Part shown: positions 9,001 to 64,000 of the stretch, piece after piece
Layout: each line of letters opens with the position of its first letter
How positions within the stretch are numbered: the first letter of the stretch is position 1
Assembly: GCA_041662125.1 (NCBI GenBank)
Contig: JBAZTA010000002.1
Coordinates: 9,064 to 73,063 of the forward strand
DNA: 64,000 nt
DNA from: Candidatus Omnitrophota bacterium
GTDB taxonomy: Bacteria; Omnitrophota; Gorgyraeia; Gygaellales; Profunditerraquicolaceae
Direction of reading: 5' to 3'
Translations under genes and position numbers: made by a program
The notes under the pieces: generated by a model
What the model was told of the DNA's origin: nothing
Seen by the model: only the letters and a program-made list of their open reading frames with translations
The model's database searches: none

Positions 9001-12000
9001 CATTGGCTCAATATCAAAAGGGATTAGATAAGGATAGAATGTTGGTTAACCTTATCTTAGATGGTGACCTTTATAATAATGATTATTCCTGGACTTTTGT
9101 AAACGGGAAAATATATACTAATACCGAAGAAACAATTGAATATGCGGAGAACTTATGGTTAAAAGATATATATTTTTCCTTGATCATTCTCGAAAATGGC
9201 AGCTGGTCTATTGAAGATGTGAGAGTTAGAAACTTTGAGAAAATAGTCCATGATGATGGTTCTATAGAGTTTGTCGGCGCCAGGGTCTATCGTTTGGGTG
9301 GATCAGAGATAGAAAACGTTAAATATGCCAAATCGTTGAAAAGAAGGGTAGTCAATGGGCAGGTTGTAGATGTTGCTGATGTAGCGCTAGATTGCGCGGA
9401 TATGAATTGGCTGTTCAGGCTGCCGTTATTTAAGAAATTACAGACTGAAAAATATCGCGAGCTGTATTTTGGGACTGCAGAGTTGGCTACGGATAAGAAA
9501 AAGAGAGTTTTAGCGGCAGGCGGAGAAACTGTTGAACTTGGTTTAGCCGAATTAGACACTTTAGTATTCGGAAATAATTTAGCTGAAGAATATAAAGAAG
9601 CATTAATTGAAAAGGTGTTTGGAGATTGGGGATACGAGCGGGTAAAAGAAACAAGTGATATCATTGCCAGAGGCCAGTATGTTCTCGACCAGCAGAATAA
9701 CAAAGTTATTCTCAAGTTATTAGAAGGTATCAATCCTTTGAATCTGATCGGTATTGATAATGATGGTAATTTAGTCACTGTCGAGATCCATGGGGAAGCT
9801 CGTAAAGCAGGTGATTTGAGCACCGGGACAACCATGAATAAAGCCGCTCTTCTGATGAAGGAATTAGGTATTGTTAACGGCGGCATGTTGTCAGAGAGTA
9901 AAGATGTAAAGTGGTATAACTCGGATGGTACTTGGAAGTTCCAGTATGAAAATACTACTGCTATGGTATTTGTGACGAAAACAAAATCTGCCGGCAGCCC
10001 GATCCGCGCATTACTAGTTATAGTTGGTTTATGGGGTATAGTTTTTATTATTTGGCGTATATTCAAGAAATTGAACAGCCACTTGTTAGTAAAGCAAGTA
10101 GATATGTTGTTAGATAATACAATCCTAAGTTTATTTTCAAATCTGCACTATATTAATACCGAGATATTACAGATAGTTGAGCCGGGAACGGTTATTTTGT
10201 CAGAAACTGTAATTTTTGTGCCTAATTTATTGGCTGAATTTGATGATTCGCGTGTGGCTATAGTACATGGAGAAGGTAAAGGTAATGCTTTTATACGAGT
10301 GTCAGCGTTAAGGCAAGTTAATCCAGACAGAATTAATGATTACCATACACTTGTTTGGGAACTCCAGCGAATGGGATATACCATTAAGCATGTGGGATAT
10401 GTAGCATTTGAGAACGTTGATCTTAGTTCAGGGAAAACAAGCAGCCCGATTTTAGGAGAGTTTAGAATTAAGTGGTATCTCTGGAAACTAAGTAGTTCTG
10501 ATTCGTTCATTCAAGAAAGGGCATATAAAACTTTAAGTGAATTAGGTATAACTGTGTTACAGGTGATTCAGCGTTATAAAAAGGACGATAAAATATTAGA
10601 GGTTATTAATCGTAACATAGATTTCTTAAACTGGTATTTTAAGCGGGAATCTGTTTACAAGATTACTTGTGAATCTGGGGAGCGATGGGGAAGCGATGGG
10701 GAAGGGACAGGAGGAGCTTGTTTAAAGTCTTATTTTAATGCTAGTAGGGAGTTGGTTTATAAAGGGTATATGCGTAAGGGTGTTGGAGCAGAGGTGGACT
10801 TTGAGGAGTATGGGGAAGAGGTGGAATATCATAGTGCTGATGAATCTGAGCCTTGGTCAACTCCTTGGAAAGTGGAGACTTTTTATCGCCGTAAGATTGA
10901 ATTAGCTTTAGTGGAATTGAAAGAATTCGCTTTATCTCTTACACAGGAAAATGTGCAAGTAAAAATACACGAGTTGATGGTGAAGGCGAAATCCAGTAGT
11001 CCGATTGAGGATATACAGCAGATCACAAGCTGGGAGTCTTCTGAGGCAGTGTTTGTGTCAGAAATGCCGCTGGCCGAGGCGCCGGAATTGCTTGAGATAG
11101 AGACGTCCAATAAGTGTAATCTAGGCTGTGTCATCTGTTTCCATTCAACCAAAGAAATTAAGCAGGAGAAGCCTGCATATTTGCCTTTGCAGGATTTTAA
11201 ACGTATTCTGGATTCCTATGATTATCCTTTACCGAAGGTCCAGTTCTGCGGTTCTTCAGAGCCGACACTTCATCCTGAATTGCCGGGTTTTGTTGCTCAT
11301 GCAGCAATAATGGATCAAGGTAAAGGAGTGGAGTTGATCACGAACGCCACGCTCCTTACGGCTGAACTTGCAAAAGCTTTGAGCGATGCAGGGTTGACTT
11401 TATTGAAAGCAAGTATAGACGGTCCTGATGAGGTATCATACCGGGCGATCAGGGGACATGATCTTTATCCTGTATTGCGAAATCTTACAAGACTTTCTGA
11501 AATAACCAGTATCCCACTTTGGATAAATTGTGTGGTTACTCAGTATAATTTTAACAAACTCGCTCATATGCCTGCTCTTATTGCTTCTGTCGGTGCAAAA
11601 TATCTTGCTTTTAGGCTCTTTGAATGGCAGACCTCTAAGATTGGTACAGTAGGTTATTATGATAGCAAAGAGCTTAAAAATATGCTCGCGGCCGTGAAGG
11701 AAGAATGTGTAAAGAGAGATATCGTATTGATCTATCCGGATATAACAGAGACAGTAAATAAGGAATGTTTCTTGCAAAAAGAAGCGAATGTTAATCATCG
11801 CGGATTCTTGACACCTTGTTATTATCAACCTCGGGAATCCGTGGGTGAGAAATTAGGAGCTCGAGAGTTCTCTCAGGTCTGGAACAGCGAGGTAATGCGG
11901 AGAATCAGGGCGAATATCAATAATGGCATATATCTGCCTGAATGTTGTTGTTTGGATGCGATCTTCGCTCAGACTCAAACTGATCCTCAATTTCATTATC

Positions 12001-15000
12001 GTTCCAGCAGCGCGATGATGGGTGCCCATATAGGTAAAGGCGGGGACACTCTTGCAATAGTTGCAAGAAATGATGAGCGAGGAGTGACTCCTGCTACTTT
12101 ATCTTTACAGCTTGAGGTGAAGGATTATGTAGCGGGAGATGTTTCTGTCCCGGAGAAGAATTTTAGAATGCCTCACCAGGAACTTATATTTGTGGAAAAG
12201 GGTATAGCTAAAGTAATGCTTAAGGATATCTTGCCTAAATCTAAGGCTCAGTCAACGGAATTGTTCCAAGGAGATTCTGTCCTTAGCTTAAAGGATTTTA
12301 GGCTCAGCTTTAAAGAGCCCTCCACAGTTTCTGTCGTAAGGCAAACCCTTGAATTGAATGTTCAGAGGAACTTATCTGAAGAATTACCTGTAAGAGAGTT
12401 TAATGGGATACAGTTTCCAGAATTTATCTATGATGACAAAGGTGAATTGCTAGGTCTTGTGTTAAGGAGAAATATCGAGCCGCAGATATTCAATGTAATC
12501 ACGACAGCCTCATTTCCGATAGGCGTGGGAGTAAAACTGCCTCCAGAAACTAAGTATGCGGATAAAGCAATAGTACAGTGTCCTCGTGATAGACAAAAGG
12601 CCAAGATATTATTTTCTACAAAAGGCAGCTTAAGCGTACGTGTTTTTGACCGGGATGATACGCTTTTTAGTGTAGAAACTTTATATCCAGGAGATAAGAT
12701 CATTCTGTTGAGCGGGCATAATGTTAAATTCAATGATACAGTAAATAAACTTCTTGAAGCCGTGGAAGGGCCGTTTGAAGGAAAAGAGTTTTTTATAGAC
12801 AAGGGATTGATAGCCAGCAGCCCGATTGAAGGCGTACTATTTACCAAAATATTGAAAGCAGAAGAGTTTGAGAGTTCTGAAGAACTGCCGTTAATCGTAG
12901 AGACTATTTTTCTATTAAAGAAGGAACAGCTGCCTTTGTCAGGGCGTACACAAAAAGTAGTATATGTAGAAACTGGAAGCCTTGTTGTGACTCTGAAAGA
13001 TACTAAAACAATGTGCACCGTAGATACCGCGGACATAATCACAGTTTTTGAGCCGGCTAGCTTATATGCATTGAGAGATTCATTTATTACCATAATTAGA
13101 GAAGGCAAAGCAAATTTAAAACGCGGCCCTCCGGCAGATTCAAAGATAATTCCTGATTTAACACAACGTCCTCGTCAGTCTCCTGAAGGTGTCGCCTATC
13201 CTGAGCTTATCTTGGATACTCAAGATAAGCTATCCGCAATAATTTACAGAGCTGCCAATATATATCCAGAAAAAATGTATCCGGTCAGTATTCCTTCCGG
13301 CGCGATCGGTATTGGCGTAAAAACTGTCAACGGACCGGAAAAGCTGCATATCGAGCCGGATAACTATATGGAAGTTCTGATCGTTGTCAACGGCAGATCA
13401 CAAGCTGCATTTACCGATTCAAATTGGAACAATCCAATCTCAACAATAATTAAATCCGGCGAAAAAGTGATCATTTATCCTAACACCGGGCATGGATTTA
13501 TCTATACGGGTTGCAAGATGCTCGTTGTTATGCAAGGCCCCTTTACCGGTAATCCTAAAACGTATCCTTTAGAAAAATCCAGCAGCCCGGTACTTACTTC
13601 TGATGCGATTGTTTCACAGTGGCTTAAGTTTAATCATCCTCCTCAGAGCGTTATCCTTGGTGATGCTTTGGTGAATGTTTTTGTGACCCGGCAGGGCGTG
13701 AGCGGTTGGAATAATCATATTGCCGGCGGCACCGGACTCTACGCGAAGATCATTCCTTCCTTAACGCTTGAAGATGGTCGTTCCATTATATTTGTTGTGG
13801 GAGATATATTAGCGGTCAAGGATATTAAGCTATTGTATAAGGATGCGGAATTCTCTGAAAGTGTTAATGCTTTTGAACGCAAGGCGCGCAGGCTGCAAAC
13901 TCTTGAGCAGATGCGTTGGCCTCATGAAAGGGTTCTTTTACCCATTGTCAGACTTATGGGCTTGATGGCAGAAAAGTACCGTTTGAACGGCCGTAGTGTC
14001 ACCTTCGATTACGACGATGATAATTCCATGATACAAGCTATTGCAAGGAAAACGCTCATCTCGCTTTTATGGATACTCAAAGAAAATAATGATTCTGAGT
14101 TAGCTATTTACTTAAGCCAACGGCGTATGGATTTTGAAAAGCTCATCGCGCTTCCTGAATATGAGCTGCGCAAGTTTCCCCCTCACTTGTTTTTAAGAGC
14201 TGATCATATCCGTTGGCAGCACTATTATGAAAGCCGTAAGCATGCAGCAAATGATGATTTTCGGCAGTTGGCAGCTTTGAGAATGGAAAGCTATCCGCTG
14301 ACAGTAAAACATTTTGATATTGAGATGGTGAAATGGTTTGAGGCTTATCAGAAGCTCGGCGATTATTTGGATATTGGCTTTGAATCAGTATTCTCTCCGA
14401 TGCAAGAAGAACATGTTTCTCTGAGCCTGGCCACAGCTGCTCTGCGCGCTTTCCTTACAATTCTTTTTGAACGTCAAGACATGGTATTGCTGACTTTCGA
14501 ACGGATGAAAGGAATATCCTATGAACAGCTCTTATCTTTGTCTCGTCAAGAGCTCTTGTCTTTGCGCCTTGATCAGGTATGGTTAAGGGCTGAAGAGCTG
14601 CTTTGGCAGGAATATTCCGCAGGCAGGGATACTGATCAAGAAATCTTGCAATTTTCCCGCGAGCGTGAATTTATTTTGCGCAAGAATGAAGAGATCAGGC
14701 TTATGTCTGAGATCAATGCTTTTATTTCACAAGGCATGGGAGAACGCTTGGCAAAGAATATGGATGTGGAAGTAGAGATTGTTCAGTTGACCGATGAGCA
14801 GATAGAAAGTTCTTTAGGGATAGAGAGGTTGCGATCTGATAATGGGCAGCCAATTCAATTGAACGCCTGCACTTTCCCAGGGCTTGTTGGAAGATTAGCA
14901 TTTTTGTATGGAGACGGTGGTTATGTGCAGGGTGTTTCAGAATCAGGGGCGCTCTTCCCGATAGATTCTCAGGCTGATTTTGTAGAGGCTTTGGCGCGCG

Positions 15001-18000
15001 GTTATACTTTAGAGTTTGTGCCTGGCCGTTTTGATATCAAGGCTTTTGGCACGGTCAATCCTAAACTGCATAAGTTTGTGCATGACGGTAGAGTAGTGAC
15101 CATCCGTCAGGATGGAACGCTGGAAGGGCCCACTCAGGCTCTTCAGGAACATTTCGGCGCAAATATAACCGGTAATTTCCGTTTAGTTTTGAGCCGCGGG
15201 AATCAATCAAAAGAAGTTTCTGTAACCGAGCTCCTGGAAATACCGGGCATAATGTTTGCCAGTAAATACCAGCCGTCTTTCCCATCTCCTTCAGGAACAG
15301 AGATAGTCGATTATTCCGCGGAAGGTATGCTCGCTCAGAAGCGTTTTAATGAACTGGGAGGAGAAAGCCAGTATCACACCTTTAGTAGATTTTCTTTTGG
15401 CAGCGCTCTTAACGACGGGAAAGAAGTTGCCGGAAGCCTCAGGTTTACCAGGCTTGATCGCGGACATTCGTTGCGGTTGGTAGAAGCGCTTCAGGAATAC
15501 GCGTTAGATAAAGAAAACAGCTTGATCGGTGAGTGGAAAAATAGCGGTATGATCGATACGCGGATTGAAGAATTCTTCCGCGGGCTGGGCGTAAATTATT
15601 TTGCTCTTCTGGCGACAGGTAAGCTGTTGATCATTCTGGGCTCTGGCCGTATTTTGCATATGACGCTTCCTGTCAGGATTATGCCTCTGGATGAGACCTA
15701 TAAGTTCTTCCTCTATAACGTTGATATTATCAAAGGCCGTTTAGCAGACCTGGGCGATTATCTGGATATAAAAGAAAGTACTAATGATGTTGATACCCTA
15801 AGAGATATCCGTGAATCGACCGCGATCATGCTGGCTATGGTTTCTCAGTTGATACGTGATCTAGAAACAGCCGGAATAACTCAGGCTGATGATGCCCGCA
15901 GGCAGAAGTTCCTGGGAGCTTTTGCGGAAGGCTTTGCCAATAAAATCGTGCAAAAAGAGCTTCTTCCTGCTCCTGTTATGTTGAATGATATTACCTATAT
16001 ACGTAATGAAGAGAAGGTGCTGTATCATCGTTTGCAGCGCATATCCCGCCAGAAACTTTCAGATAATTTTGAGAATTTAGTCCATCTTCTTACTGCAAGT
16101 ATTCAGCCGGTGATGGCGCAGTGGCCGGTATTAGATTTCTCAGATCCCTTAGCTTTTAACATGAATGCCAGTGTTCCTTATCGTTTCAGCCCTTACGAAG
16201 ATTACACAGACAGAACAAAATATCCCGATCTTTGGTCAGAAACCAGGTCCGCGCTTAAGCTGCTTGCTGAGAGCCAAAGGCCTCAAGGCTACCCGGCTTA
16301 TTTCTGGAAGATCCGGGGAGAAGAGCTTGCTGAAAGAAAAGATCTTTTGGGTAATGGAGGGCGTTTGGCAAAATTGACGGGCGCTCTTCATGAAGCGTTT
16401 AGCGCGCAGAAGAATACGGTTTACGTCGATGAGCAGAAAGTATCTTTATTTGAGGCTTTAGATGAGCTTAATGTTTTGATCAAAGAGTCCAAGAAGGCTT
16501 ATCAGTCTTCCTCGAGTGCGATAGAGGCAGAAAAGGATCAGGGCTGGAACAGTGAAGGTATCTGTATCGCGGCGCAGACGTTATACCGAAACACGCAGTA
16601 CGGATGGGCGCGGCGGTTTGTTGAGGACATATATCGGGCGAACGCGGGGAGCGAGTTATTTGTGGCAGCGGCAGAGCGAGCGTTAGGGCGGTTAATGTTT
16701 GTGAAGCATTACCGAGCAGGGGTGGGATATATCACGCATCAGGTAGGGTTATTGGAAAGTGTGCCGATCGAGAAGTGGGATGAAGACAGGTCGGTGATGA
16801 AGGTATTGAAATGGTATGGGAATGGAGAGGCAGTGAGGAACGCAGAAGCGATAGAATTTATCGTATCATTTTACGGGATACTGAAGTATTGTCAAGAAGG
16901 GCAGAATCAGAGGAAATGGTTTGTAGGTGAGATATTGAGCATGTTGGCGTGCGAGGAAACAGAAAGCGTGGCGTACCACCGAGCGTTAGGGGTGTGGGAA
17001 TTGATCAAAGGGAGGGTGAGCGAAGAGCATAAGGTATGGTGGAATAAAGTAGCAGGAGAAGCTCGGTTAGATCAGGCGGTGATGAACCGGTTGAGGATAT
17101 TGCTTGGGCAGAAAGAACCGCGGGGTAAGATCAACAGAAGATCGGAATATGAGTTAGATGGTGCGCGATCGTTTAGAGAGCGGTTAGGGATATTAAAGGA
17201 AGCGATCGTGGTGGAAGGCGTTGAAGGAGTGGTATTGCAGAAGGCAAGCGGAGATTACCAGGTGACGATAGGAGCGGACCTGTTGACGCATTCAGATTGG
17301 GAGTTAGACGCGAGAGTTCGGTGGCGAAGGAAAGGCCAGCAGCAGTGGCAGAGGACAAAGATGTATAGTATTGGCGCATACCGATGGCAGGGGGTATGCG
17401 AGATAGGAAAAGATGATCCTGAGGATTACGAGTATACGTTGACGGCCTGGGTGAATGTGGGGGAGACCTGGAGACAGAATATCCGTGAGCGATGTGTGCT
17501 TGCGCCTGAAGAGATCAATGATATCAAGAGCGATGTGCTGCTGGGGATAGAGTTATTAAAGCAGATGATCACGGAATACGGGTTAGAGGGCGAAGAGGCG
17601 GGGAAGGTGAATAAGCATATTGCGTCATTAGAGATGGAAGCGCAGTACGCGGGAGATATCTGTGTGATCTCAGAGCGGGACGAGTTGAAGGAATTGATGG
17701 TGAAGTATCCGTTACGAGACCATTTGATCAGGTATGAAACATACGGGCCGCAGCTGAAGGTGGTAGGGGATAAGGTGGTCAAGAACGATAAATTGGTATG
17801 GTTATGGAATGAAAAGCCGATGGTAGATGACGGAGAGTATTCGGCAAAGAGGATTGTAGGAGAAGTAATAGAGGTAGAGATAGATACGATCATTATAGAT
17901 ACGAAACGGGTAATGTTAAAGTACCGCAGGAAGTGGCAGGCAGAGCCGTGGCAGCAGACAGTGATGGAATGTGTGAGTAGGGATGGGGTATACCGGTGGA

Positions 18001-21000
18001 AAGGTAAATTTAAGGCAGAAGAAGTTGGTCGGTATGAGGTAAGTTTTGAGATAGAAGATGGCTCAGGGTTAGTGTACCGGTATGAAGATGAGATCACGGC
18101 GCTCGAAGTGATGGTGAGCCCGGAAGTGGCGCGGTTCGGGACGTGGTATGCATCGTTCCCGAGATCGTTTGGCGGGTTTCGTGGGTTGATCAAAGATATT
18201 GAGCGGGTAGCAGGAATGGGATTTGATGTTTGGTATTTACCTCCGATCTATCCGATCGGGATAACCAATAGGAAAGGGCGTAACAACAGTTTAGTAGCAG
18301 GAGCGAATGATCCAGGGTCACCGTGGGCGATCGGGAACATTTATGAAGAAGTAGAAGGAGACCGCGGCCATAAATCAGTGCATCCCGGATTAGGGACAAT
18401 AGAAGATTTCAGGAATTTCAGGGAAGCGGCAGAGTCAAAGGGGATGAATGTCGCGTTAGATCTGGCGTTCCAGTGTTCACCGGAGCATCCATATGTAAGG
18501 GATCATCCGGAATGGTTTTATTTGCGTCCGGATAAGAGCATCAAATACGCGGAGAACCCGCCGAAGAAGTACCAGGATGTATACCCGCTTAATTTTTATC
18601 CTGAAAATAACGGGGATATGGAAGCGTTATGGAATGAGTTGAAGAGCGTGGTAGAGTTCTGGGTCGTGCAGGGGGTGAAGATATTCCGGGTGAACAGTCC
18701 GTATAAGAACCCGTTTCGGTTCTGGCAATGGCTGATCGATGAGATCCATAAGGTGAATCCAGAGGTAGTGTTTTTATCAGCGGCATTGACGAATCCTAAG
18801 GCGCAGCGGTTATTAGCGAAAGCAGGGTTCCAGTTGTCGTATACGGATTATCCGGCGCGCAACGACCGTGCGCAGTTAGAGGAACTTATCAGCGATGCGC
18901 AAACAGGGATAGCGACGTGTCAGACAAAGGAATACTTAAGAGGGTTATTGCCGGCCAATACGCCTGACATATTATCGAATTGGTTGAGCCGTGTGCCCAA
19001 GACAAAGGTAGAATTAGAACGGGCGTTTAAGATAAAGTATTTGTTGATGTTTTTGTCTCCGAGCGTGATGATCTATGGGCCGGCGTATGAATTGTGCTGG
19101 AACCAGCAGGTAGAACAGGGCGGGGTGCGGGAGTACGAGGATTCAGAGAAGTACCGGATCTACAACTGGCCAGAGATCATAAAAGAGGCACAAGAGAATA
19201 ACCAAGCGGATATCAGCGGGTTTATCGCGATGGTGAACCGGATCAGGAGAGAACATCCGGCGTTACAGTCTGATGAGGTACGATTCATAAAAATAGAGGG
19301 ACAGGAGCACCGGCCGGAAGACCAGCATCATATGGTGGTGTTCATGAAACGCTCGGAGGATAAGACTGAGACGATGATCGTGGCGGTGAACATCGATGTG
19401 TCGGGCGCGATGCGCTGGGTGAACGCGACGATACCGGTACAGGAGATGGGGATCGGCTGGGGCCAGACGTATGTGTTGGAAGATGTATTGAACCAGGGGG
19501 AATCCTACACCAAGAACAGCGCGGTCGTTGGTATTGGCCGTGGCGGAGAAAAAGATATCGCCCATATCTTTATCGTGAAAAAATCCTCTTCGGCAATTTC
19601 TGGTTTTGATGCTGAAAAACTCTGTCTTACCGCGCAGTTGTGGTATGCCAAAGACCGTTTTACCTGGGCTGAGAGATTCAGCCAATACTATTGGGAGAAT
19701 GCGCAGTCGGAATTCTTCGTGCCTGCGGCGGAAATTGCCCTCGCAAGGTTGCTTTTTGATAAGAACTTCTACGAAGGGGTAGCGTATGTCTTGCACAGGG
19801 TTAACTTATTGGATCCTGCTCCTATATCTGCGTGGGGGGATGATAAGTCAGTCGTTAATGTCCTGAAATTGTATGGGAATGGTTCAGAGGGAAGAAGTAA
19901 TACCGAGATAGAAAGATTAAGTAATGAAATAGTTGATTTTATGGTTTCTTTTTACGGATTACTTGCGCACCGTAAAGAGGGACAGCGGCAGAGAAAGTGG
20001 TTTATAGGGCAGGTTTTGAGCATACTGGCCAATGAAGAGCCGCAGAGCGTTGCCTATGAACGGGCATTGTCCGTATGGCTGGGAATAAAAACTAAGGTTA
20101 ATGATGAACATATAACATTCTGGAATGAGATAGTAAGCGGGATCCCGCTTGAAGAAAATATCAATAACCGCATAAAAATATTCCTGGGTAAGAGAGATGT
20201 TCGGTCAAGAATCATCCGCAGGGCAGATTATGATGAAGCAAGCGTTAAACCCTTCAGGCAACGGTTAGGTATTTTAAAGGAAGCTATCGTTTTTGATAAT
20301 ATGGAAGGCGGGGTTGAGCAGTTGGGTGATGGCCGGTATAACGTTATTATCGATGTGGATATGCTGGTCCATGAAAGCTGGGAATTAGGAGCCAAGATAA
20401 AGTGGAGTTTAAAAGGGCAGGACCAGTGGCAAGAAGCCTCTATGTTTGGCATCGGAGCCTATCGCTGGAAAGGGATCTGTTATATCGATCAAGAAGCTCC
20501 CCAGGATTATGAGTATTCGATAGAAGCCTGGGTAAATGTCGGTGAGACCTGGAGGCAGGAAATTATCAAGCGCTGCCTGGCTGCTCCTCAAGAGACCGTT
20601 GATATTAAGAGCGATGTGTTGCAGGGTATTAAGTTGTTAAAGCAATTGAGCAGTGATCGTTGTTTTGAAGCAGGTCAACTTCCGCGGATCGATAATCTTA
20701 TCAGGCAGTTCGAGGATAAAAATGCTTCTTTACCGCAAGGTGAGCTCAGTTTTGAGGTAAGGCAGGATTACTCCAAGAGCGTTTGTCAGCTTGCGGATAG
20801 TGACGATATCAAAGGATTGATGTTTGAGTATCCGTTGCGCCAGCATCTGATCCGGTATGACGTGTACGGCCCGCAGATAAAGGTAACGGGAAATAAAGTC
20901 GTCAAAAATGATCAATTGACTTGGATATGGAATGAAACTCCGGTTGTCAATGGCGGAGAATATCCTGTTAAGCGGATCGTAGGAGAGCCGATAACTGCTA

Positions 21001-24000
21001 CGATGGAGACGATCATTATCGATTCTCAATCGGTATTGTTAAAGTATCGCCAAAAGTGGGGAGAAACTCTCTGGCATACGGTTGAAATGGAATGTATTAA
21101 TAAAGACAGGGCGTACCGGTGGCGGGGTGAGTTTATTCCTTTAGAAGTGGGGCGCTATGAGATCAGCTTTGAAATCCGAGATATCGCCGGGCAGGTATAC
21201 AAATATGAAGAAGAGATAACGCCGTTAGAAGTAATGGTAAGTCCTGTGGCAGCGCGCTTCGGGACCTGGTATGAATCGTTCCCGCGGTCGTTTGGCGGGT
21301 TTAAAGGGATGATAAATGATGTAGATCGTGTCGCAGGGATGGGATTTGATATATGGTATTTGCCTCCGATACATCCGATCGGAGAGACTAAGCGTAAAGG
21401 AAAGAATGGCAGCCTTACCCCCGAGCCTGGTGCTCCGGGTTCCCCATGGGCAATAGGTAATATTTCTGTAGCAGTTGAAGGGGACCGGGGACATAAGTCA
21501 GTACATCCTGATTTAGGGACAATGGATGATTTTAGAGATTTTGTCGCTGCGGCGCAAGCAGTCGGAATTAAAGTTTCCCTGGATTTCGCGTGTAATTATT
21601 CCCCGGACCATCCGTATGTGCATGATCACCCTGAATGGTTCAACCGTAGGCCTGACGGCAGTATTAAATACGCGGAGAACCCTCCGAAAAAATATGAAGA
21701 TATTTATCCTTTGAATTTTTATCCCGAAAAAGACGAGGATATGGAAGCGCTGTGGTTTGCTATTAAGGACGCGTTTGAATTCTGGATCGAGCAGGGCGTT
21801 ACCGTTTTCAGGGTCGATAACCCTCATAAAAAACCATACGGCTTCTGGCGCTGGCTCATCGATGAGATACATAAAAGACATCCGGAGACGATCTTCCTGG
21901 CTGAGGCTTTTACCAACGCCAAGATCATGAGGCTTTTAGCCAAATCGGGATTCCAATTATCGTATACCTATTATCCGTGGAAGAATAGCAAGCCTCAATT
22001 GGAAGAATTTATTTTAAATCCGGAAATAGGGATCATGACCTGCCGGACAAAAGAATATTTCAGAGGGCTTTTGTCGGCGAATACTCCGGATATACTCCCT
22101 GAGTGGCTCAGCCGTATTCCCAGAAATAAGGAAGAACTCGAGCGGGCGTTCATGATCCGCTATATCCTCATGCTTATGTCGCCGAGCGTGATGATCTACG
22201 GGCCGGCGTATGAATTATGCTGGAATATGCAAGAAAAAGAAGGCGGTTCTACGGAATACCGCGATTCCGAGAAATTTGAAGTAAAACGCTGTAAAGAATT
22301 TTTGCAAGCCGCAAAAGAAGATGCCTTGAAGTCTCCCGAGGAAAGATCTATCCCCGACATCAGCGGCTTTATTACCGCGGTCAACCGGGTGAGAAAAGAG
22401 CATCCCGCGTTACAATCAGACGATATCCGTTTCATCAGAATAGAAGAACAGAAGCGCCGTCCTGAGGACCAGCATTATATGGTCGGTTTTATAAAGAAGT
22501 CGGTTGATAAGAATGAAGTTGTCCTGGTCATCGTAAATATTGATCCTTCAGGTACCGAACGCTGGGTGAATGCGACAATACCGATTGAAGAGTTAGGCAT
22601 CGACTGGGGAGAGTCATATGAATTAGTTGATGTGTTGAATCCCGGAGAGAAGTATACCAGAGACAGCGCGGTCATTGAGCTCATCCGCGGCGGTAAGAAT
22701 AGGCCCCTTGCTCATATCTTCGTGCTTAAGAAATTGCAAGATAAGGCATCTTCAGCAATTGTAGCCGCCTCCAGTGCAATAGGGGCAGAAGAAGATTCCT
22801 GGAGCAGCGAGGGGATCTGTATCGCGGCGCAGACGTTGTACCGAAGTGCGCAGTACGGATGGGCATTGCGGTTTGTGGAAGACATTTACCGGCCGAACGC
22901 GGGGAGCGAGGGATTTGTGATGGCGGCGGAGCGCGCGTTAGGGCGGTTGTTGTTTGTGCGGCATTACCGCGCGGGAGTGGGGTATATCACGCATCAGGCG
23001 GGGTTATTGGAAAGTGTGCCGATCGAGAAGTGGGATGAAGACAAGTCGGTGATGAAGGTATTGAAATGGTATGGTAACGGTGAGGCGGGCAGGAACGCGG
23101 AAGCGGTGGATTTCATCGTATCATTTTACGGGATCCTGAAGCATTGTAAAGAAGGGCAGAATCAGCGGAAATGGTTTGTGGGGCAGATTTTGAGTTTACT
23201 GGCGTGCGAGGAGAGCGATAGCGTGGCGTACCACCGAGCGCTGGGGGTATGGGATCTGATCAAAGGGCGGGTGAGCGAAGAGCAAAAGGTGTGGTGGAAC
23301 AAGGTGATCGGGGAGGCGCGGTTAGACCAGGCGATATTGAACCGGATGAGGATCCTTCTTGGGCAGAAAGAACCCCGGGGGAAGATCCTGAGACGGGCAG
23401 AGTATAAAGAGGAAGCAGGGAAATCGTTCAGGGATAGGTTAGGGATATTAAAGGAAGCGATCGTGGTAGAAGGAGTGGATGGAGTGGTATCGCAGAAGTC
23501 AAGCGGGGATTACCAGGTAGTGATCGGGGCGGACCTGTTGACGCATTCAGACTGGGAGTTAGACGCGAGAGTGCGGTGGCGCAGGCGAGGGCAGCAGCAG
23601 TGGCAGGGTGCGAAGATGTATAGTATCGGAGCGTACCGGTGGCAGGGGGTTTGCGATATCGGGAAAGACGATCCTGAGGATTACGAATATACGCTATCGG
23701 CATGGGTGAATGTGGGAGAGACCTGGAGGCAGAGTATCCATGAACGCTGTGTGCTGGCGCCGGAAGAGATCGCTGATATCAAGAGCGATGTATTGCTGGG
23801 GATCGAGTTATTAAAGCAGATGATCACGGAATACGGGTTAGGGGGCGCAGAGGCGCTGAAGGTGAATAAGCATATTGCGTCATTAGAGATGGAAGCGCAA
23901 TACGCGGGAGATATCTGTATGATCACCGACCGTGAGGAGTTGAAGGAATTGATGGTGAAGTACCCGTTACGAGACCACCTGATCAGGTATGAAAATTACG

Positions 24001-27000
24001 GCCCGCAGTTGAAGGTGGTGGGCGAGAAAGTGGTGAAGAACGATAAATTGGTATGGTTATGGAATGAAAAGCCGATGGTCAATGACGGGGAGTACGCGGT
24101 CAAGCGGATCGTGGGAGAGACAGTCGAGATAGAGATAGATACGATCATCATAGACGCGAAGAGGGTCATGTTAAAGTACCGCAGGAAGTGGCAGGGCGAG
24201 GATTGGCAGCGCACGGTGATGGAATGTGTAAGCAAGGATGGGGTGTACCGGTGGAAAGGGGCATTTAAGGCAGAAGAAGTTGGGCGGTATGAGGTAAGTT
24301 TCGAGGTAGAAGACAGTGCGGGGTTAGTGTACCGGTATGAAGATGAGATCACGGCGCTGGAAGTGATGGTGAGTGCGGAAGTGGCGCGTTTCGGGACGTG
24401 GTACGCGTCGTTCCCGAGATCGTTCGGCGGGTTTAAGGGGATGATCAAGGATGTTGAGCGTGTCGCGGGTATGGGATTTGATGTATGGTATTTGCCTCCG
24501 ATCTATCCGATCGGGATAAGCAATAGGAAAGGGCGTAATAATAGTTTGGTAGCAGGGGAGAATGATCCCGGTTCACCATGGGCGATCGGGAACATCTATG
24601 AAGATGTGGAAGGAGACCGCGGTCATAAATCAGTGCATCCGGGTTTAGGGACAATCGAAGATTTCAGGATGTTCAGGGAAGCGGCAGAGTCAAAAGGAGT
24701 GAATGTGGCGCTGGATTTGGCGTTCCAGTGTTCGCCGGAGCATCCGTATGTAAGGGACCATCCGGAATGGTTTTACCTGCGGCCGGACAAGAGCATCAAA
24801 TACGCGGAGAACCCGCCGAAGAAGTACCAGGATGTGTACCCGCTTAACTTTTATCCTGAGAATAACGGGGACATGGAATCGTTATGGAAGGAATTGAGGA
24901 GCGTGGTGGAGTTCTGGGTCGCTCAGGGGGTGAAGATATTCAGGGTGAACAGCCCGTATAAGAACCCGTTCCGGTTCTGGCAGTGGCTGATCGATGAGAT
25001 CCATAAGAATAATCCTGAGGTGGTGTTTTTATCTGCGGCGTTGACGAACGCGAAGGCGCAGCGGATGCTGGCGAAGGCAGGGTTCCAGTTATCGTATACG
25101 AATTATCCTGCCCGGAACGACCGCGCGCAGTTAGAGGAGCTGATCAGCGACGCGCAGACAGGGATAGCGACGTGCCAGACAAAGGAATATTTAAGAGGGT
25201 TATTGCCGGCCAATACGCCTGACATATTATCGAATTGGTTGAGCCGGGTGCCGAAGACGAAGGTAGAGTTGGAACGGGCGTTCAAGATAAAGTATTTGTT
25301 GATGTTATTGTCGCCGAGCGTGATGATCTACGGGCCGGTATATGAGTTATGCTGGAACAACCAGGTAGAACAGGGCGGGGTGCGGGAATATGTCGATTCG
25401 GAGAAGTACCGGGTCTACGACTGGCCGGAGGTTATAAGGCAAGCGCACGAGAATGATGATGCGGACATCAGCGGGTTTATCGCGAAAGTCAACCGGATCA
25501 GGAAAGAACATCCGGCGTTACAGTCTGACGATGTGCGGTTCATCAAACTGGAGGGCCAGGCGCACCGTCCGGAAGACCAGCATTATATGGTGGTGTTCAT
25601 GAAACGGTCAATGGATAAGTCTGAGGCGATGATCGTGGCGGTGAACATCGATGTATCCGGGGCGATGCGCTGGGTGAACGTGACGGTGCCGGTGCAGGAG
25701 CTGGGGATCGGCTGGGGCGAGACGTATGTGTTGGAAGATGTATTGAACCAGGGTGAATCCTACACCAAGAACAGCGCGGTGGTGGGTATCGGCCGTGGCG
25801 GAGAAAAAGATATTGCCCATATCTTAATCGTGAAAAAATCCTCTTCGGCAATTGTGGTTGAAGATGCTCTGCGTGCCCGGATAAGCGAACTTGGGATAGA
25901 AAGAGATGGAATTGGAAAAATTTTAACAGTTCGAATCAAAGAATGGGAAAACATTCAGGCAGTAATCGTTTCTTTAAAGTCTGAACATAGAACAAAATCC
26001 GGCGAAGCTGACAGGATCTGGGCAAAGACGGCAGATGTAAGAGCAAAAATACGGCTTTATTCTGAAGGGCTTGTTTTTTGGAAAAAGTTTTTGCGTTTTT
26101 TCTGGCCGTCTTCAGAACAAAGAGAAGTAAGGATAAAGGAACGTCTTTGGAAGAATTTGGTAAAGCAACGCGATGCCTTAATGAAGGATATTCGGAAAGC
26201 GCAGGCGGAAGAAAAAACTTTTGCAGGTGGGGTTAAACAGTTACAAGGCAACGTCTTTGTTATTAATGGTGAAATAGAAAAGCTTCAGAGGCAGCTTGAT
26301 GCCTTTAATAGTCCTATCCCACAGAAAATATTGGCTCCTGCAGTGGCTGATGTTTTGTCTGAAGCTGCTGCTGGTGTTTGCGTTGCTCAAAAGACGAGAG
26401 TTCCTGTGTGCCAGGAAGCTTCAAGAGCAGCCGCGCAGGGAAAACCCGTTATTCGCGTTTCGGCGAAACAGGCAAAAGCTTTGGTAGAGAATTTGACAGA
26501 ACATATCACCTTGTCCTATATCAAGGCGAATCAAGAAAACATGGTTGAACTTCTTGCGGCAGTTTGCGGAGAGTTGCCTTTAGAGCGCCTGGCAAAGCTT
26601 TTGGCTCAATACATGTGGCTTGACCCTTCTCAAAAACATATTATAGATGCGATCATGGACCGATTCACCAGCTTTGATCTTGGTATCTTTCAAGGTGTCT
26701 TTCAGGCGTGGGATACGCTTGAGAATATCGCTTTCGCCGAAAATACTTTCCAGGTTTATCTCCTCAAGAGGAATAGTGGAAATAATAGCCAATGGAAACA
26801 AGAACAACTGTTAAATGATTTAGCCGAGCAGCTTAAAAAGCAGCCGGGAACCAAAAGGTCAAAGAGTTCTTTAAAGATCGATAATAGTCATTTTGGACTG
26901 TATCATGCCCGCATCGATTCTAATAATTGGCGTATATTCTTCCGGATCAATTGTGATGAGAAAATAATCATTATTGTGGATATAGTTACGAGAGCGGAGT

Positions 27001-30000
27001 TAGATAAAACAGGGGCATATGATGAAAAAATAATCGTATTATTGGCAGGTAAATCAGCAGTGGTTTTGTTGCAGGAATATGATGTTATTCCTTACGGCAA
27101 TCTCGTTATTCCTGAACAGGCATTAATCAGGAAAGTCCAGCAAACAAGGGTTTCTGCTTCGCCTATTTCGAAAAATTTTTACGCTGAAAAGAAAACGTTT
27201 ACAAATTTAGTTGGGTTGCGGAGGTATGTTTTGGGCTTACCTCTTCCGTGGCTGGTGGGGGGCCTTTACTCCGCAGCCCATACTAATAATCAAGGAGGTT
27301 TCGGATGCTTAGTCAATATCAATTCAGTCAGTTACAGGTCTTACAGCTCAGGGTTTTATCTTCCCGCGATGTGGTTGTCTATACATGTGTTCCTGATTGC
27401 CAAACAGTATTTGAGTTTATCCTCTCGCCTTTGGGGTACGCGTGGGGAAAATCACCGGGCGGCTGGCTTGAGCTTACCTATGAATGCGCCGAGCAGATCA
27501 GGGAATTACTCCACGGACAAATTAAAGAAATCCCTATATATTTTGAAGGGCAGTCCTTGGGCAGCGCGTAATCGGGCTTATGCTGTTTTTGCCAGCAGCG
27601 CGCTTGAACATAATAGTTCAGCAGCACCTTATTCTTTAATTACTTCAGGCAAGCTTAAGCAATATGCTCGTTTCTGGTCGTTTTTGAGCCTTGGTTTGGG
27701 TGCTTTATGTGGCTTCTATAAGTTTGATTTTGTTAATTTGCCTTTTGTTTTTGTAACGATACTTTTGCTTGCGGTAATTATATCCACACAAGCATATGTC
27801 GTGCGCAGTTTGGAGGAGGTAATTACAGTTTATAATAAAGGAATAGAGGCTGATAACGGGAGTATTTGTTTCTTAGATGCTGCTCAAAATATTGTTGTTC
27901 ATCCGGCGATCCTTGCTGCCTCCCAGGAGAAGATACTGTCCCGTATCCTGATAACATTCTTGTCTCCCCTTTTGATCCTGCATAAAATAAACAATAAAAT
28001 TGTTTCTGCTATCTTACGCAGGGTATCTTTAACGCATCAACCTGTAAAGATGCTTTTACCCGTAGTTGATAGAACAGGAAGCTTCTTGTCATATACTTTG
28101 GGCGGCTATGTTTATGTTATGGCGCTGGAAGCGCTCACGATGATCATTACCTTACCATACGGAGTATTGCCTGCTTTCTTGTATCTTTTTGTTGTCAGTA
28201 TAGTGCCTTATTCCTTGGTGAGTGAATATCTTAATTCTCTTTGGATGAGCCGGTATTTAAGCCAGCAGTTAGGCAAAGCGTTGGTGGAAAAGGCAGAAGC
28301 GCGAGAATCGGCGATACGGGATCCTTTGACCGGCGCCTATAATCGTAGGTACCTTGATGAGGAATTGCCGAAATGGACTGCACGCGTCAGAAGAGGCAAA
28401 GATGAACTTTCGATCCTGATGCTCGATATCGATTTCTTTAAGAAAGTCAATGATACCTATGGCCATACAGCAGGAGATGTTATCTTGAAGGGAGTTTCTC
28501 GATTGATCCATGATTCGATCCGTACCAATGATTCATTATTCCGTTACGGAGGGGAAGAGTTTTGCCTTGCCTTGTCATGTAAATTAGCGGATGCCGTTGT
28601 GAAGGCGGAAAAGATACGGAGGGTGATAGAGGAATATGCGTTTAATCATCGTGGCGTTGAAATCAGTGTTACGGTCAGTATTGGGGTAAGCGAGTTTGAT
28701 AAAGAAAATATCGATGACAGCCATAAGGATGTTATTGAGCGGGCGGACAGAGCGCTTTATGAAGCTAAAGAAAGCGGCAGGAATAAAGTAGTGGCAAATA
28801 CCTTCGGCTCCAGCAGCTCTGCAATAAATAATAATCAGCTTAAAAAATATTTTATGAGTCTTTATTCGTATGCCGCAGGGCGAGCAGTTATATTGAATAC
28901 TAACGCGGCTCAGGCGCATATGGTATCATTGCCGATTGTCAGGGTTACAAACTTGCCCGAAGCACTCAAGATATTGGCAGATGAATCCTTTGGAAGATGG
29001 TTGGATATACAGGGGGCGTGGCGCGCTGAGCATACCATGGATATAGATGATTATCGGGGTTTTCTTACGGGTAAAGCAGAAGAGCCGGGGGAGTTATACC
29101 TTGTCTTTTCGTTACAGCCTTCTGTTATAGATGTTGAAGGTTTTGTGAATCTTAAGGTTTCCTTGTTGGGGCAGGATATGCGCGTTGTCCATGAATACGC
29201 GTTTCTGGAAATAGCGCCATGGAACCGGTGTCCGGTGGATCAGCGACGCTATTCAGGGCTCGGGCATGAATTGAGAATTTTTGGTATTCAGGAATTATTA
29301 TCACATGACCAAAAAATAGTACAGCAGGTTACCCGTGATAAAATCAGGGTTTTAGGCCACCGGGATGTTGCAGGGGATATTTTTGAGGATGGCATACACC
29401 GGGGGTATGTGGAGGAATATCTAACCGTTCAAGCAGAGAAAAGGCGTTTATGTATTGAAATGTTCGGCTTACAAGATGAAGCTGATATTCCGAGTTCATC
29501 TCCGATTAAAATTCCAGAAAAGGCGCAAGGAAAGGCTGAAGCTGTTTATGGTAAGAATAAAGTTTTATTCAAAAGACAACTCAAAGGTTTTGATATCGGC
29601 CTTCCTGGCGCTTTCTATAATGAAAAACATTACCATGTAATAAAAGATGGCCTGGAGAAGTTTGCTCCTCTTAGTTTGCGCGCGCCTCCTCTGTGGGCTT
29701 TGGAGATCACAACTTCTCTGTCATCCACCGGCGGAGAATATATTGCTTTAGATGCACTTTCTAGAACCGTTATTATTCATCCTGCCTATTTTGACCTTCC
29801 GCAAAAAAGCCAATTAGTGGCCCTGGCTAGTAAGCTTATTTTGATATTCTTGGGGATAGAACATAAATCATTATCAGAAACCGCGGCAGAGTCACTGGTG
29901 TCCAATAATAAGAATATGCTCCGGTTACTTTCTTCTCTTATCAACCTTCGTACTAAGCTTACCTATAGTTGCCTGTCACTCCATGATATTGAAGCAGCGC

Positions 30001-63920: not shown

Positions 63921-64000
63921 GAGAAGCGTGAAAATAGCCTTTATCGCGGCTCACACGGGTGTATCCGCGAACAGGAGGAAGATGCCTCACGGTTGTTCAA
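63738..64000 (+). other. L,D-transpeptidase (YkuD/ErfK) catalytic domain, interrupted by the frame-0 TAG at 63918. The catalytic Cys motif lies in the -1 (frame 2) reading.
   Basis: Frame 0: IGENPGNTPLGWHRITRFDRWHKSSSYKTPDGLPAPMYWGLQLDGSRIWLHQG then RLPLLF*. Frame 2 from 63899: EIAAPLLEKRENSLYRGSHGCIREQEEDASRLF (compare YGIHGT...SHGCIRMxNEDxxELF). The junction is at the GGGG run 63896-63899. Confidence 0.65.

Follow-up and report, generated by a model that had tools for sequence, protein, structure and literature searches.

A predicted dead–live–dead triplet of GlgE-like modules, bounded by a recurrent SS[A/P]I motif, in a giant gene of Candidatus Omnitrophota

GlgE, a validated drug target in tuberculosis, is known from Streptomyces coelicolor (GlgEI) and Mycobacterium tuberculosis as a free protein of ~650–700 amino acids (aa) that combines an N/S domain, a GH13 core and a C domain. 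Tandem pairs of active and inactive enzyme domains are found in receptor tyrosine phosphatases (D1/D2) and in animal fatty-acid synthase (ψKR/ψME), and dead GH13 ectodomains in 4F2hc/rBAT. In α-glucan metabolism, the pseudoenzyme BAM9 serves as a partner that activates AMY3 in starch degradation (PMC12046210; 10.1101/805119). GlgE itself is a dimer built through domain N, and its D394A and E423A variants are catalytically compromised and retain the binding of malto-oligosaccharides (PMC5076824). No GlgE pseudoenzyme is described in the literature that we found. Here we analyze three consecutive GlgE-like modules, copies A, B and C, encoded in a 64,000-nucleotide (nt) stretch of DNA from a Candidatus Omnitrophota bacterium (contig JBAZTA010000002.1, positions 9,064 to 73,063; hereafter the window). 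We consider it probable, if well short of certain, that they constitute a dead–live–dead triplet, in which B is a catalyst flanked by the conserved pseudoenzymes A and C, and that this arrangement resulted from old duplications that ran from one boundary motif to the next.

The discovery of giant bacterial genes is recent, and it is an open question whether each product works as a single chain or is cleaved into many pieces; the points of cleavage are unknown (West-Roberts et al., bioRxiv 10.1101/2023.11.21.568195). Repetition of Pfam families within a polypeptide is reported to be usual, in 65% of long proteins (bioRxiv 10.64898/2026.06.07.730766). The gene described here resembles the multi-enzyme giants of Omnitrophota treated in that work in having an open reading frame (ORF) of more than 20,000 codons and ROK, radical SAM, GT1/GT4, HAD, HD, NUDIX and methyltransferase domains. 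It departs from the accounts given in the giant-gene papers (10.64898/2026.06.07.730766; 10.1101/2023.11.21.568195), where GlgE/amylase domains go unmentioned and neither live and dead enzyme copies nor a recurrent boundary motif are described.

Frame 3 of the plus strand forms a single stop-free stretch from nt 3 to nt 63,998 (21,332 codons, open at both window ends), with no stop codon at all compared to 746–1,973 in each of the other five frames. Only six complete ORFs of at least 150 aa exist inside the window, because this entire frame is stop-free, and the continuation of the frame beyond both window ends places the triplication inside a giant gene. With at least 21,332 codons, many enzyme families and no dominant repeat, the frame has the architecture of giant proteins, for which more than 10,000 codons were required. 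Two other origins of so long a frame were rejected: an adhesin-type repeat, because the modules are enzyme folds and not Ig, cadherin or RTX repeats, and an alternative genetic code, because the frame is free of TAA, TAG and TGA alike.

Six families of direct repeats, each with three in-register copies, recur at start-to-start distances of 3,123 and 3,132 nt and give an offset of 6,255 nt from A to C. Together with protein self-BLAST and the common stop-free frame, this spacing bears out the ~3.1-kb in-frame tandem triplication, and the A-to-C offset of ~6255 nt, put forward in a preliminary description of the sequence. The three in-frame modules (~1,025–1,054 aa) together occupy nt 16,524–25,853. 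Units end in ...HI(F/L)(I/V)(V/L)KK followed by (S/A)SSAI, and this motif defines the boundaries below, in which L001 denotes a related contig described later. The module starts first proposed (16,537, 19,620 and 22,796) were approximately right, lying 15–35 nt from the motif-defined ones.

nt 16512..16523, plus strand: SSAI motif directly upstream of copy A (…KKAYQSS-SSAI)
nt 16524..19598, plus strand: copy A, aa 5508–6532, predicted dead GlgE-like module, motif-defined, with terminal SSSAI at 19,587–19,598
nt 19599..22760, plus strand: copy B, aa 6533–7586, GlgE-like module with catalytic residues intact, motif-defined, with terminal ASSAI at 22,749–22,760
nt 22761..22781, plus strand: B/C junction with doubled motif (…ASSAI-VAA-SSAI), the second SSAI at 22,770–22,781
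nt 22782..25853, plus strand: copy C, aa 7594–8617, predicted dead module, 88% identical in aa to A and 93% to the L001 module, with terminal SSSAI at 25,842–25,853

Over ~1,000 aa, protein self-BLAST gave identities of 88% for A–C, 56% for A–B and 56–62% for B–C; taken overall, the aa identity of B is ~58% with either outer copy. Nucleotide identity between A and C is high, as the preliminary description had it, but amounts to 86.8% over the codon alignment (87–91% in single 300-nt segments) and not to ~90%. It is evenly spread (75–93% per 180 nt) and free of long identical tracts, the longest exact match being 56 nt, from nt 18,936. Segments 22801-22920 and 16541-16660, previously called nearly identical, agree at 22.5% of positions; the true partner of 16541–16660 at the 6,255-nt offset is 22796–22915, and even there identity is 82.5%, so that the similarity had been overstated. 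No remnant of a fourth module was detected downstream of C by protein self-comparison or by synteny comparison with L001. Three antisense ORFs overlap the modules on the minus strand (17426–18193, 19263–19796 and 23996–24448), and between the ends at 18193 and 24448 the distance is exactly 6,255 nt. They had been described as duplicated at the module offset along with a fourth, 25597–25820, which is shorter than 150 aa and falls outside the list of ORFs of at least 150 aa. Rather than genes, these ORFs appear to be shadows of the sense sequence and its repeats, and they are confined to the GC-richer GlgE modules.

Each module begins with ~210 aa that have no Pfam match. Then come the GlgE N/S domain in complete form, another N-like domain that is partial, a GH13 core and a GlgE C domain. 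The parts of copies A and B are located as follows.

nt 16524 onward, plus strand: copy A, helical region, ~first 210 aa
nt ~17,235–17,744, plus strand: copy A, GlgE N/S domain
nt ~17,814–18,044, plus strand: copy A, second partial N domain
nt ~18,102–19,511, plus strand: copy A, GH13 core
nt ~19,317–19,574, plus strand: copy A, GLGE_C
nt ~20,385–20,867, plus strand: copy B, GlgE N/S domain
nt ~21,219–22,718, plus strand: copy B, GH13 core
nt ~22,467–22,721, plus strand: copy B, GLGE_C

Matches to PF11896 (GlgE_dom_N_S), PF00128 (Alpha-amylase) and PF21702 (GLGE_C) are above gathering scores in all three copies, so that A, B and C each carry the GH13 core and the N/S and C domains that characterize GlgE (GH13_3). 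Solved GlgE structures in the PDB were matched by B at E=6e-104 and by A at E=6e-96. NCBIfam, a library that holds no GlgE model, returned only sub-threshold GH13 matches, and a word-indexed protein search with the module returned ordinary GlgE only. When 1.84 billion representative proteins were searched exhaustively with HMMER, 4,765 GlgE relatives were recovered, none of them giant and none spanning the whole module; outside matches reach the GlgE core only, at 30–42% identity, and the best outside relative (P0005, 972 aa) aligns with module residues ~211–1,025 at 30–32% identity. The first ~210 aa matched nothing among these proteins, nor in Pfam, and A, B and C were one another's closest relatives in the same set. 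AlphaFold modeled this N-terminal region as about 11 helices at low confidence (mean predicted local confidence, pLDDT, 58) and the whole of copy A with a pLDDT of 52 and a predicted template-modeling score (pTM) of 0.28. These models are too uncertain for fold searches; only the succession of secondary-structure elements was used, and it is consistent with the anatomy given by Pfam. In terms of sequence, the module is a helical domain of no known family joined to a "long" GlgE-type (GH13_3) maltosyltransferase. It therefore shares with described GlgE proteins the N/S, GH13 core and C domains, and differs in lying within a polypeptide of more than 21,000 aa and in adding the ~210-aa helical domain and the second N-like domain, the latter being present only in "long" relatives such as P0005.

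The fate of catalysis in the three copies was read from a residue map in S. coelicolor GlgEI numbering, built on an alignment with 107 full-length relatives and with residue roles taken from PMC4526890 and PMC5076824. The motifs that surround the nucleophile and the acid/base are the following.

nt 18684..18707, plus strand: copy A, degenerate nucleophile motif FRVNSPYK (D394N, N395S, H397Y), from the residue map
nt 18,771–18,791, plus strand: copy A, degenerate acid/base motif FLSAALT (E423A, F425L), from the residue map
nt 21807..21830, plus strand: copy B, intact nucleophile motif FRVDNPHK, from the alignment with PDB GlgE and the residue map
nt 21,894–21,914 and 22,077–22,097, plus strand: copy B, intact acid/base motif FLAEAFT and motif ANTPDIL (D480), from the residue map
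nt 24,939–24,962 and 25,026–25,046, plus strand: copy C, degenerate motifs FRVNSPYK and FLSAALT, from the residue map

Copies A and C and the L001 module have seven substitutions in common (H256Y, D394N, N395S, H397Y, E423A, F425L and W448A), each at a position that is at least 95% conserved in the 107 relatives. Asp and Glu occupy positions 394 and 423 in 105–106 of these proteins, where A, C and L001 have Asn394 and Ala423, and none of the relatives examined shares the eight-position signature of the three modules. In the aligned degenerate motifs of A and C, no acidic residue is evident that could stand in for those lost. The same modules retain K264, N268, S279, Q324, N352, K355, Y357, D359, R392, D480, K534 and Y535, that is, the −2 subsite in full and, of the four phosphate ligands, N352, K355 and Y357 but not N395. 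Copy B keeps D394, E423, D480 and R392 and all four phosphate ligands (N352, K355, Y357 and N395), and so resembles described GlgE enzymes in its full catalytic triad and phosphate site. It varies at three donor-site positions (N268G, Q324N and Y535F), with minority variants that are found in 5–7 of the 107 relatives. Asp394, Glu423 and Asp480 are thus present together in B only; two of the three copies, A and C, lack the nucleophile and the acid/base of GlgE. Mean identity to canonical GlgE is 41.3% for B and 39.4–39.7% for A and C, and conserved columns lost number 10 in B and 17 in A and C. The earlier picture of a middle copy that drifts is consequently reversed, with B slightly nearer canonical GlgE and in possession of its catalytic and phosphate-site residues, and with A and C having lost them in part. 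We predict that B is the catalytic copy, and by homology its donor would be maltose 1-phosphate. Copies A and C have family homology, have lost catalytic residues and are nevertheless maintained; they are predicted to be conserved pseudoenzymes which, although derived from GlgE, should not be classed as GlgE enzymes. They may still bind sugar ligands, because the D394A and E423A variants of GlgE bind malto-oligosaccharides.

The only related genomic locus found, L001, is an 11-kb contig that is likewise one open frame and belongs to a metagenome-assembled genome labeled uncultured Planctomycetales. The single GlgE-like module of this contig (nt 8106-11144) shows nucleotide identities of 91% with C and 85.6% with A. 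The contig ends at nt 11146, ~20 nt short of the end of the module, in a manner that resembles an assembly-graph break at a repeated module; this hints that the L001 genome also has more than one copy. No further orthologues were found in two metagenome scans (one with automatic patterns, one with the hand-made pattern AWVNVGETWRQ) or among viral contigs, and the HD–HAD–NUDIX block of the giant frame gave no match when used as a query for related loci.

Synonymous (dS) and nonsynonymous (dN) divergence and their ratio (ω) were estimated by the Nei–Gojobori method on codon alignments. The A–C comparison gave dS 0.555 and ω 0.116, C–L001 gave dS 0.367 and ω 0.110, and A–L001 gave dS 0.616 and ω 0.122; for A–B and B–C, dS was saturated and dN was 0.32. 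Copies A and C and the L001 module are under strong purifying selection (ω≈0.11–0.12). With B as outgroup, derived states are shared 87 times by C and L001, 36 times by A and C and 28 times by A and L001, which favors the topology ((C,L001),A). Since C is nearer to the L001 module (dS 0.37) than to A (dS 0.56), the A/C split predates the divergence of L001. The sequences place the origin of the dead type in a single event, followed by its duplication before the window and L001 genomes diverged. The duplication proposed initially was indeed intragenic, the copies being paralogues within the gene lineage (mutual closest relatives with a common ~210-aa domain), but with an A–C dS of 0.56, and with C closer to a module in another genome (91% nucleotide identity) than to A, it was not recent. 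Gene conversion, the other mechanism then invoked for the likeness of A and C, is at odds with the even spread of identity and left a single candidate.

nt 18,837–18,986 (copy A) and nt 25,092–25,241 (copy C), plus strand: candidate short A↔C conversion tract of ~150 nt, overlapping the 56-nt longest exact match

In this tract A and C agree against L001 at 15 sites and C and L001 agree against A at 3 (Fisher p=3e-5, or ~6e-4 corrected for 21 windows). As judged from these comparisons, A and C are alike through shared ancestry and selection and not through homogenization.

The modules (window nt 16503-25853) also stand out in GC content at third codon positions (GC3), which is 0.59 in A, 0.49 in B and 0.68 in C compared to 0.42 in the whole frame and 0.41–0.44 in the flanks; the L001 module has 0.67 and the rest of its contig 0.43. 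The stem leading to C and L001 gained GC, with 56 changes from A or T to G or C (W>S) and 16 in the opposite direction (S>W), and copy A has more S>W changes. On these substitution directions, simple amelioration of a recent foreign insert was rejected as an explanation of the island. Possible causes are GC-biased conversion, selection on codons or exchange among genomes that differ in GC content.

The motif at the ends of the modules is a feature of the entire giant frame. The strict form, [S/A]-S-S-[A/P]-I, occurs there 24 times, compared to 0.70 expected from composition (with a maximum of 6 in 1,000 shuffles) and to 0–4 occurrences of the strict motif in the other reading frames. Outside the GlgE region, 19 sites were counted (0.71 expected), and the relaxed form SS[AP][IVLM] has 38 sites (2.7 expected). 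Among the tetrapeptides of the frame, over-representation is strongest for SSSP, SSPI, SSAI and SSSA. The KKSSSAI-like ends noted for each module at the outset are therefore real, but they are one instance of a gene-wide motif and are not restricted to the modules. The strict sites are these, with nucleotide positions at 3 x aa.

plus strand, strict motif sites at aa 1321, 2692, 2708, 2939, 3480, 3665, 4272 and 5504
plus strand, strict motif sites at aa 6529, 7583, 7590, 8614, 9605, 9832, 10532 and 11093
plus strand, strict motif sites at aa 13092, 14233, 14669, 15771, 16355, 16408, 18459 and 18879

The codons of the motif vary freely, including both serine codon families and assorted Ala, Pro and Ile codons, and the motif is on this account conserved as a peptide; conservation at the DNA level, as a recombination site or an RNA signal, was rejected on the same grounds. 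Pfam envelopes contain none of the 38 sites (for the strict set, P≈5e-4), and several sites lie 3–40 residues from the edge of a Pfam domain. When the frame is cut at the motif, the segments match duplicated units end to end, both in the GlgE triplet and in an older pair at aa 4006–4530. This adjacent tandem pair (nt 12018-12827 and 12828-13592, plus strand) repeats a module of ~260 aa that Pfam does not recognize; its copies are 23% identical and end in SSPI and SSPV, and the second copy is common to L001.

Comparison of the window with L001 places breaks in synteny at the motif as well: four of four breakpoints lie exactly at an SS[A/P][I/V/M]-type motif.

window nt ~8076-8830, ~10005, ~12816 and ~13590: synteny breakpoints
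L001 nt ~1750, ~2935, ~7350 and ~8097: the same breakpoints on the related contig

Modules at aa 2700–2937 and aa 4531–5503 are present in the window only, and aa 3336–4264 are replaced by unrelated content in L001, which itself has six relaxed motif sites (0.42 expected). The C-like module of L001 follows directly after a block that in the window precedes a further 975 aa and then A and B. A second relative, P0156, is a 2,235-aa fragment of a giant gene labeled Candidatus Omnitrophica; a stretch of 730 aa matches window aa 1159–1879 with 52% identity. The window itself contains no marker gene. Three motif-like sites occur in P0156 (GSSPL at aa 163, SSSSI at aa 781 and TSSPL at aa 1516; 0.23 expected), of which GSSPL aligns with the window SSSAI that precedes the epimerase domain and SSSSI stands where homology to the window stops. 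Another sequence, P0155, was considered as a possible free-standing gene with its start at a motif boundary; this idea was dropped, its frame being open upstream to the contig edge.

We interpret SS[A/P]I as a delimiter of evolutionary modules, and as a peptide it is a candidate module linker, modification site or processing site. Its recurrence at the module boundaries of a very long ORF is what a processed polyprotein would present and is shared with viral and other polyproteins. The gene differs from them in that the motif matches no nameable cleavage site and that Pfam scans revealed no peptidase within the 64-kb window, the gene extending past both ends. No paper on SSSPI/SSSAI as such a motif was found in the literature. 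In a further reading, SS[A/P]I, as the boundary of each GlgE-like copy and of about 24–38 other modules of the gene, would act as a specific processing or hinge signal, and the giant ORF would encode a polyprotein. Release or folding of the triplet would then yield an active subunit and two inactive ones, which assemble into a heteromeric glucan-synthesizing unit. This reading strikes us as doubtful.

A history that accommodates these patterns can be proposed. An ancient duplication, in which synonymous sites are now saturated, would have given rise to a catalytic lineage, today's B, and to a lineage that lost the seven active-site residues. The dead lineage would have duplicated again (dS≈0.56) before L001 diverged, leaving B between A and C, and the unit duplicated would have been the stretch between consecutive SS[A/P]I motifs. 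The order A–B–C could have been reached if a pair of one dead and one live module was duplicated and one copy was then lost, or if the second dead module was inserted separately. Functionally, B would transfer maltosyl from a sugar 1-phosphate donor onto an α-1,4-glucan. Copies A and C, with the −2 subsite and the greater part of the phosphate site kept, probably bind maltosyl or glucan ligands; instead or in addition, either may act as a non-catalytic partner of B in an A–B or B–C pairing that replaces the GlgE homodimer and holds or presents the growing glucan. Of these elements, the module anatomy, the lost catalytic residues, purifying selection and the sequence of duplications are shown by the data; the activity of B, the binding of ligands by A and C and a pairing with B are deduced from them. 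As in BAM9 with AMY3, D1/D2, fatty-acid synthase and 4F2hc, a paralogue that has lost catalysis would here be kept near an active relative; the dead–live–dead order and the setting in a bacterial giant polypeptide are unlike those systems.

Several observations weigh against this proposal. The A–B–C order is unlike what would arise had the dead copy simply been duplicated next to itself, and the difference in GC3 between A and C (0.59 and 0.68) fits separate insertions as well as it fits duplication in situ. The activity of B is read from conserved residues, and the N268G, Q324N and Y535F variants mean that its donor may not be maltose 1-phosphate. The pairing or scaffold role of A and C is putative, and both AlphaFold models were of low confidence (pLDDT 58 and 52). 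Finally, a single related genome fragment was found, L001, which ends at the end of its module.

Among other histories, the one first suggested was that recent intragenic duplication or continuing conversion keeps A and C alike while B drifts neutrally. It draws on the far greater similarity of A and C to each other than of either to B, and on the fact that the ~150-nt tract in which A and C agree against L001 holds the longest exact match. However, this explanation is largely refuted and we regard it as very improbable: A–C dS exceeds C–L001 dS, differences are evenly spread with no exact match beyond 56 nt, and B has all catalytic residues and is nearer canonical GlgE than A and C are. Saturated synonymous sites between A and B, with a dN of only 0.32, moreover imply long-term constraint and not drift. 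Better placed, though in our judgment still unlikely, is the separate insertion of A and C by module shuffling or transfer between related giant genes at SS[A/P]I boundaries. Such insertion would account for the non-adjacent position of A and C, for the doubled motif at the B/C junction, for GC3 values that exceed those of the gene (A and C) and of the contig (L001), and for the different context of the C-like module in L001, and the four motif-borne synteny breakpoints demonstrate that insertion or deletion at the level of modules clearly occurs. Set against this, the unique N-terminal domain and the mutual closest kinship of the copies mean that the donor must be the same gene of a close relative, no donor sequence was found, and the order is explained equally well if a pair (A–B or B–C) was duplicated and one copy lost.

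An assembly artefact, in the form of mis-joined strain variants or repeat expansion by the assembler, would be in keeping with the classic difficulty of 3-kb repeats and with an L001 contig that stops at the end of its module like a repeat-induced graph break, and the region had been flagged beforehand as a hotspot for assembly collapse. The risk is modest, given that the longest exact run shared by A and C is too short to mislead modern assemblers, and we find such an artefact hardly credible: the copies differ at 13% of positions, mostly synonymous (ω 0.12), which marks divergence and not error, the frame is intact across 9.3 kb and every junction, and the junction sequences are unique. The remaining alternative concerns function and not history. 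A and C could be active, neofunctionalized enzymes with new chemistry or specificity, as would be allowed by strong purifying selection and by the fact that R392, D480, the −2 subsite and all but one of the four phosphate-site residues are kept; pseudoenzyme calls made from sequence are sometimes overturned (see the review PMC10211241). We hold this to be improbable, because the nucleophile (D394N) and the acid/base (E423A) are lost along with N395, H397, H256 and W448, because GlgE variants altered at the first two positions are catalytically compromised (PMC5076824), and because the aligned motifs show no evident substitute acidic residue. The dead–live–dead triplet, with B as catalyst and A and C as pseudoenzymes, thus remains the reading we prefer.

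The rest of the frame provides the context of the triplet. A Pfam scan of the window identified more than 25 enzyme and signaling families along it. The chain opens with an epimerase, a ROK kinase, a dehydroquinate-synthase-like domain, two radical SAM domains and the GlgE-like triplet, continues with GGDEF, RelA/SpoT, a GH77 4-α-glucanotransferase, TPR, methyltransferase, HD, HAD and NUDIX domains, and closes with a GFO/IDH/MocA oxidoreductase, GT4, another radical SAM domain, a PPDK-type dikinase head and YkuD. Additional domains related to α-glucans in the same frame (GH77 at ~33393-35270, GT4 at ~56691-57845, and the PPDK_N and PEP-utilizers dikinase head at ~60087-61406) suggest a theme of glucan metabolism around the GlgE triplet. 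Second-messenger domains are fused with metabolic enzymes (GGDEF at ~28311-28787, RelA/SpoT synthetase at ~30669-31019 and HD_4 at ~50556-50963), and two transmembrane-like segments (aa 9243 and 9380) lie upstream of the GGDEF domain. Two radical-SAM segments (~7521-7874 and ~11082-11432, plus strand), ~3.5 kb apart and 57–58% identical to each other, represent another intragenic duplication. A ParE-toxin-like segment (~26799-26999, plus strand; PF05016, E=8e-5, just at the gathering score) occurs ~1 kb downstream of copy C, and the inside of a giant frame is an odd location for a fold of toxin–antitoxin systems.

The triplet bears on how giant genes grow and what becomes of their parts. Giant genes grow by duplication of whole modules, and the copies may become conserved non-catalytic partners, as the dead–live–dead arrangement would illustrate. 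The presence of a GlgE-type α-glucan enzyme inside a giant multi-enzyme protein provides a link to the synthesis of storage or surface glucans, and a conserved inactive GlgE that keeps its −2 subsite could reveal functions of the fold that are independent of catalysis. The boundary motif predicts the limits of modules, and thereby offers a rational way of cutting giant proteins before their structures are predicted or the pieces expressed, and provides proteomics with a defined target site. If the polyprotein reading were true, the motif would supply the cleavage points that are missing from the literature on giant genes.

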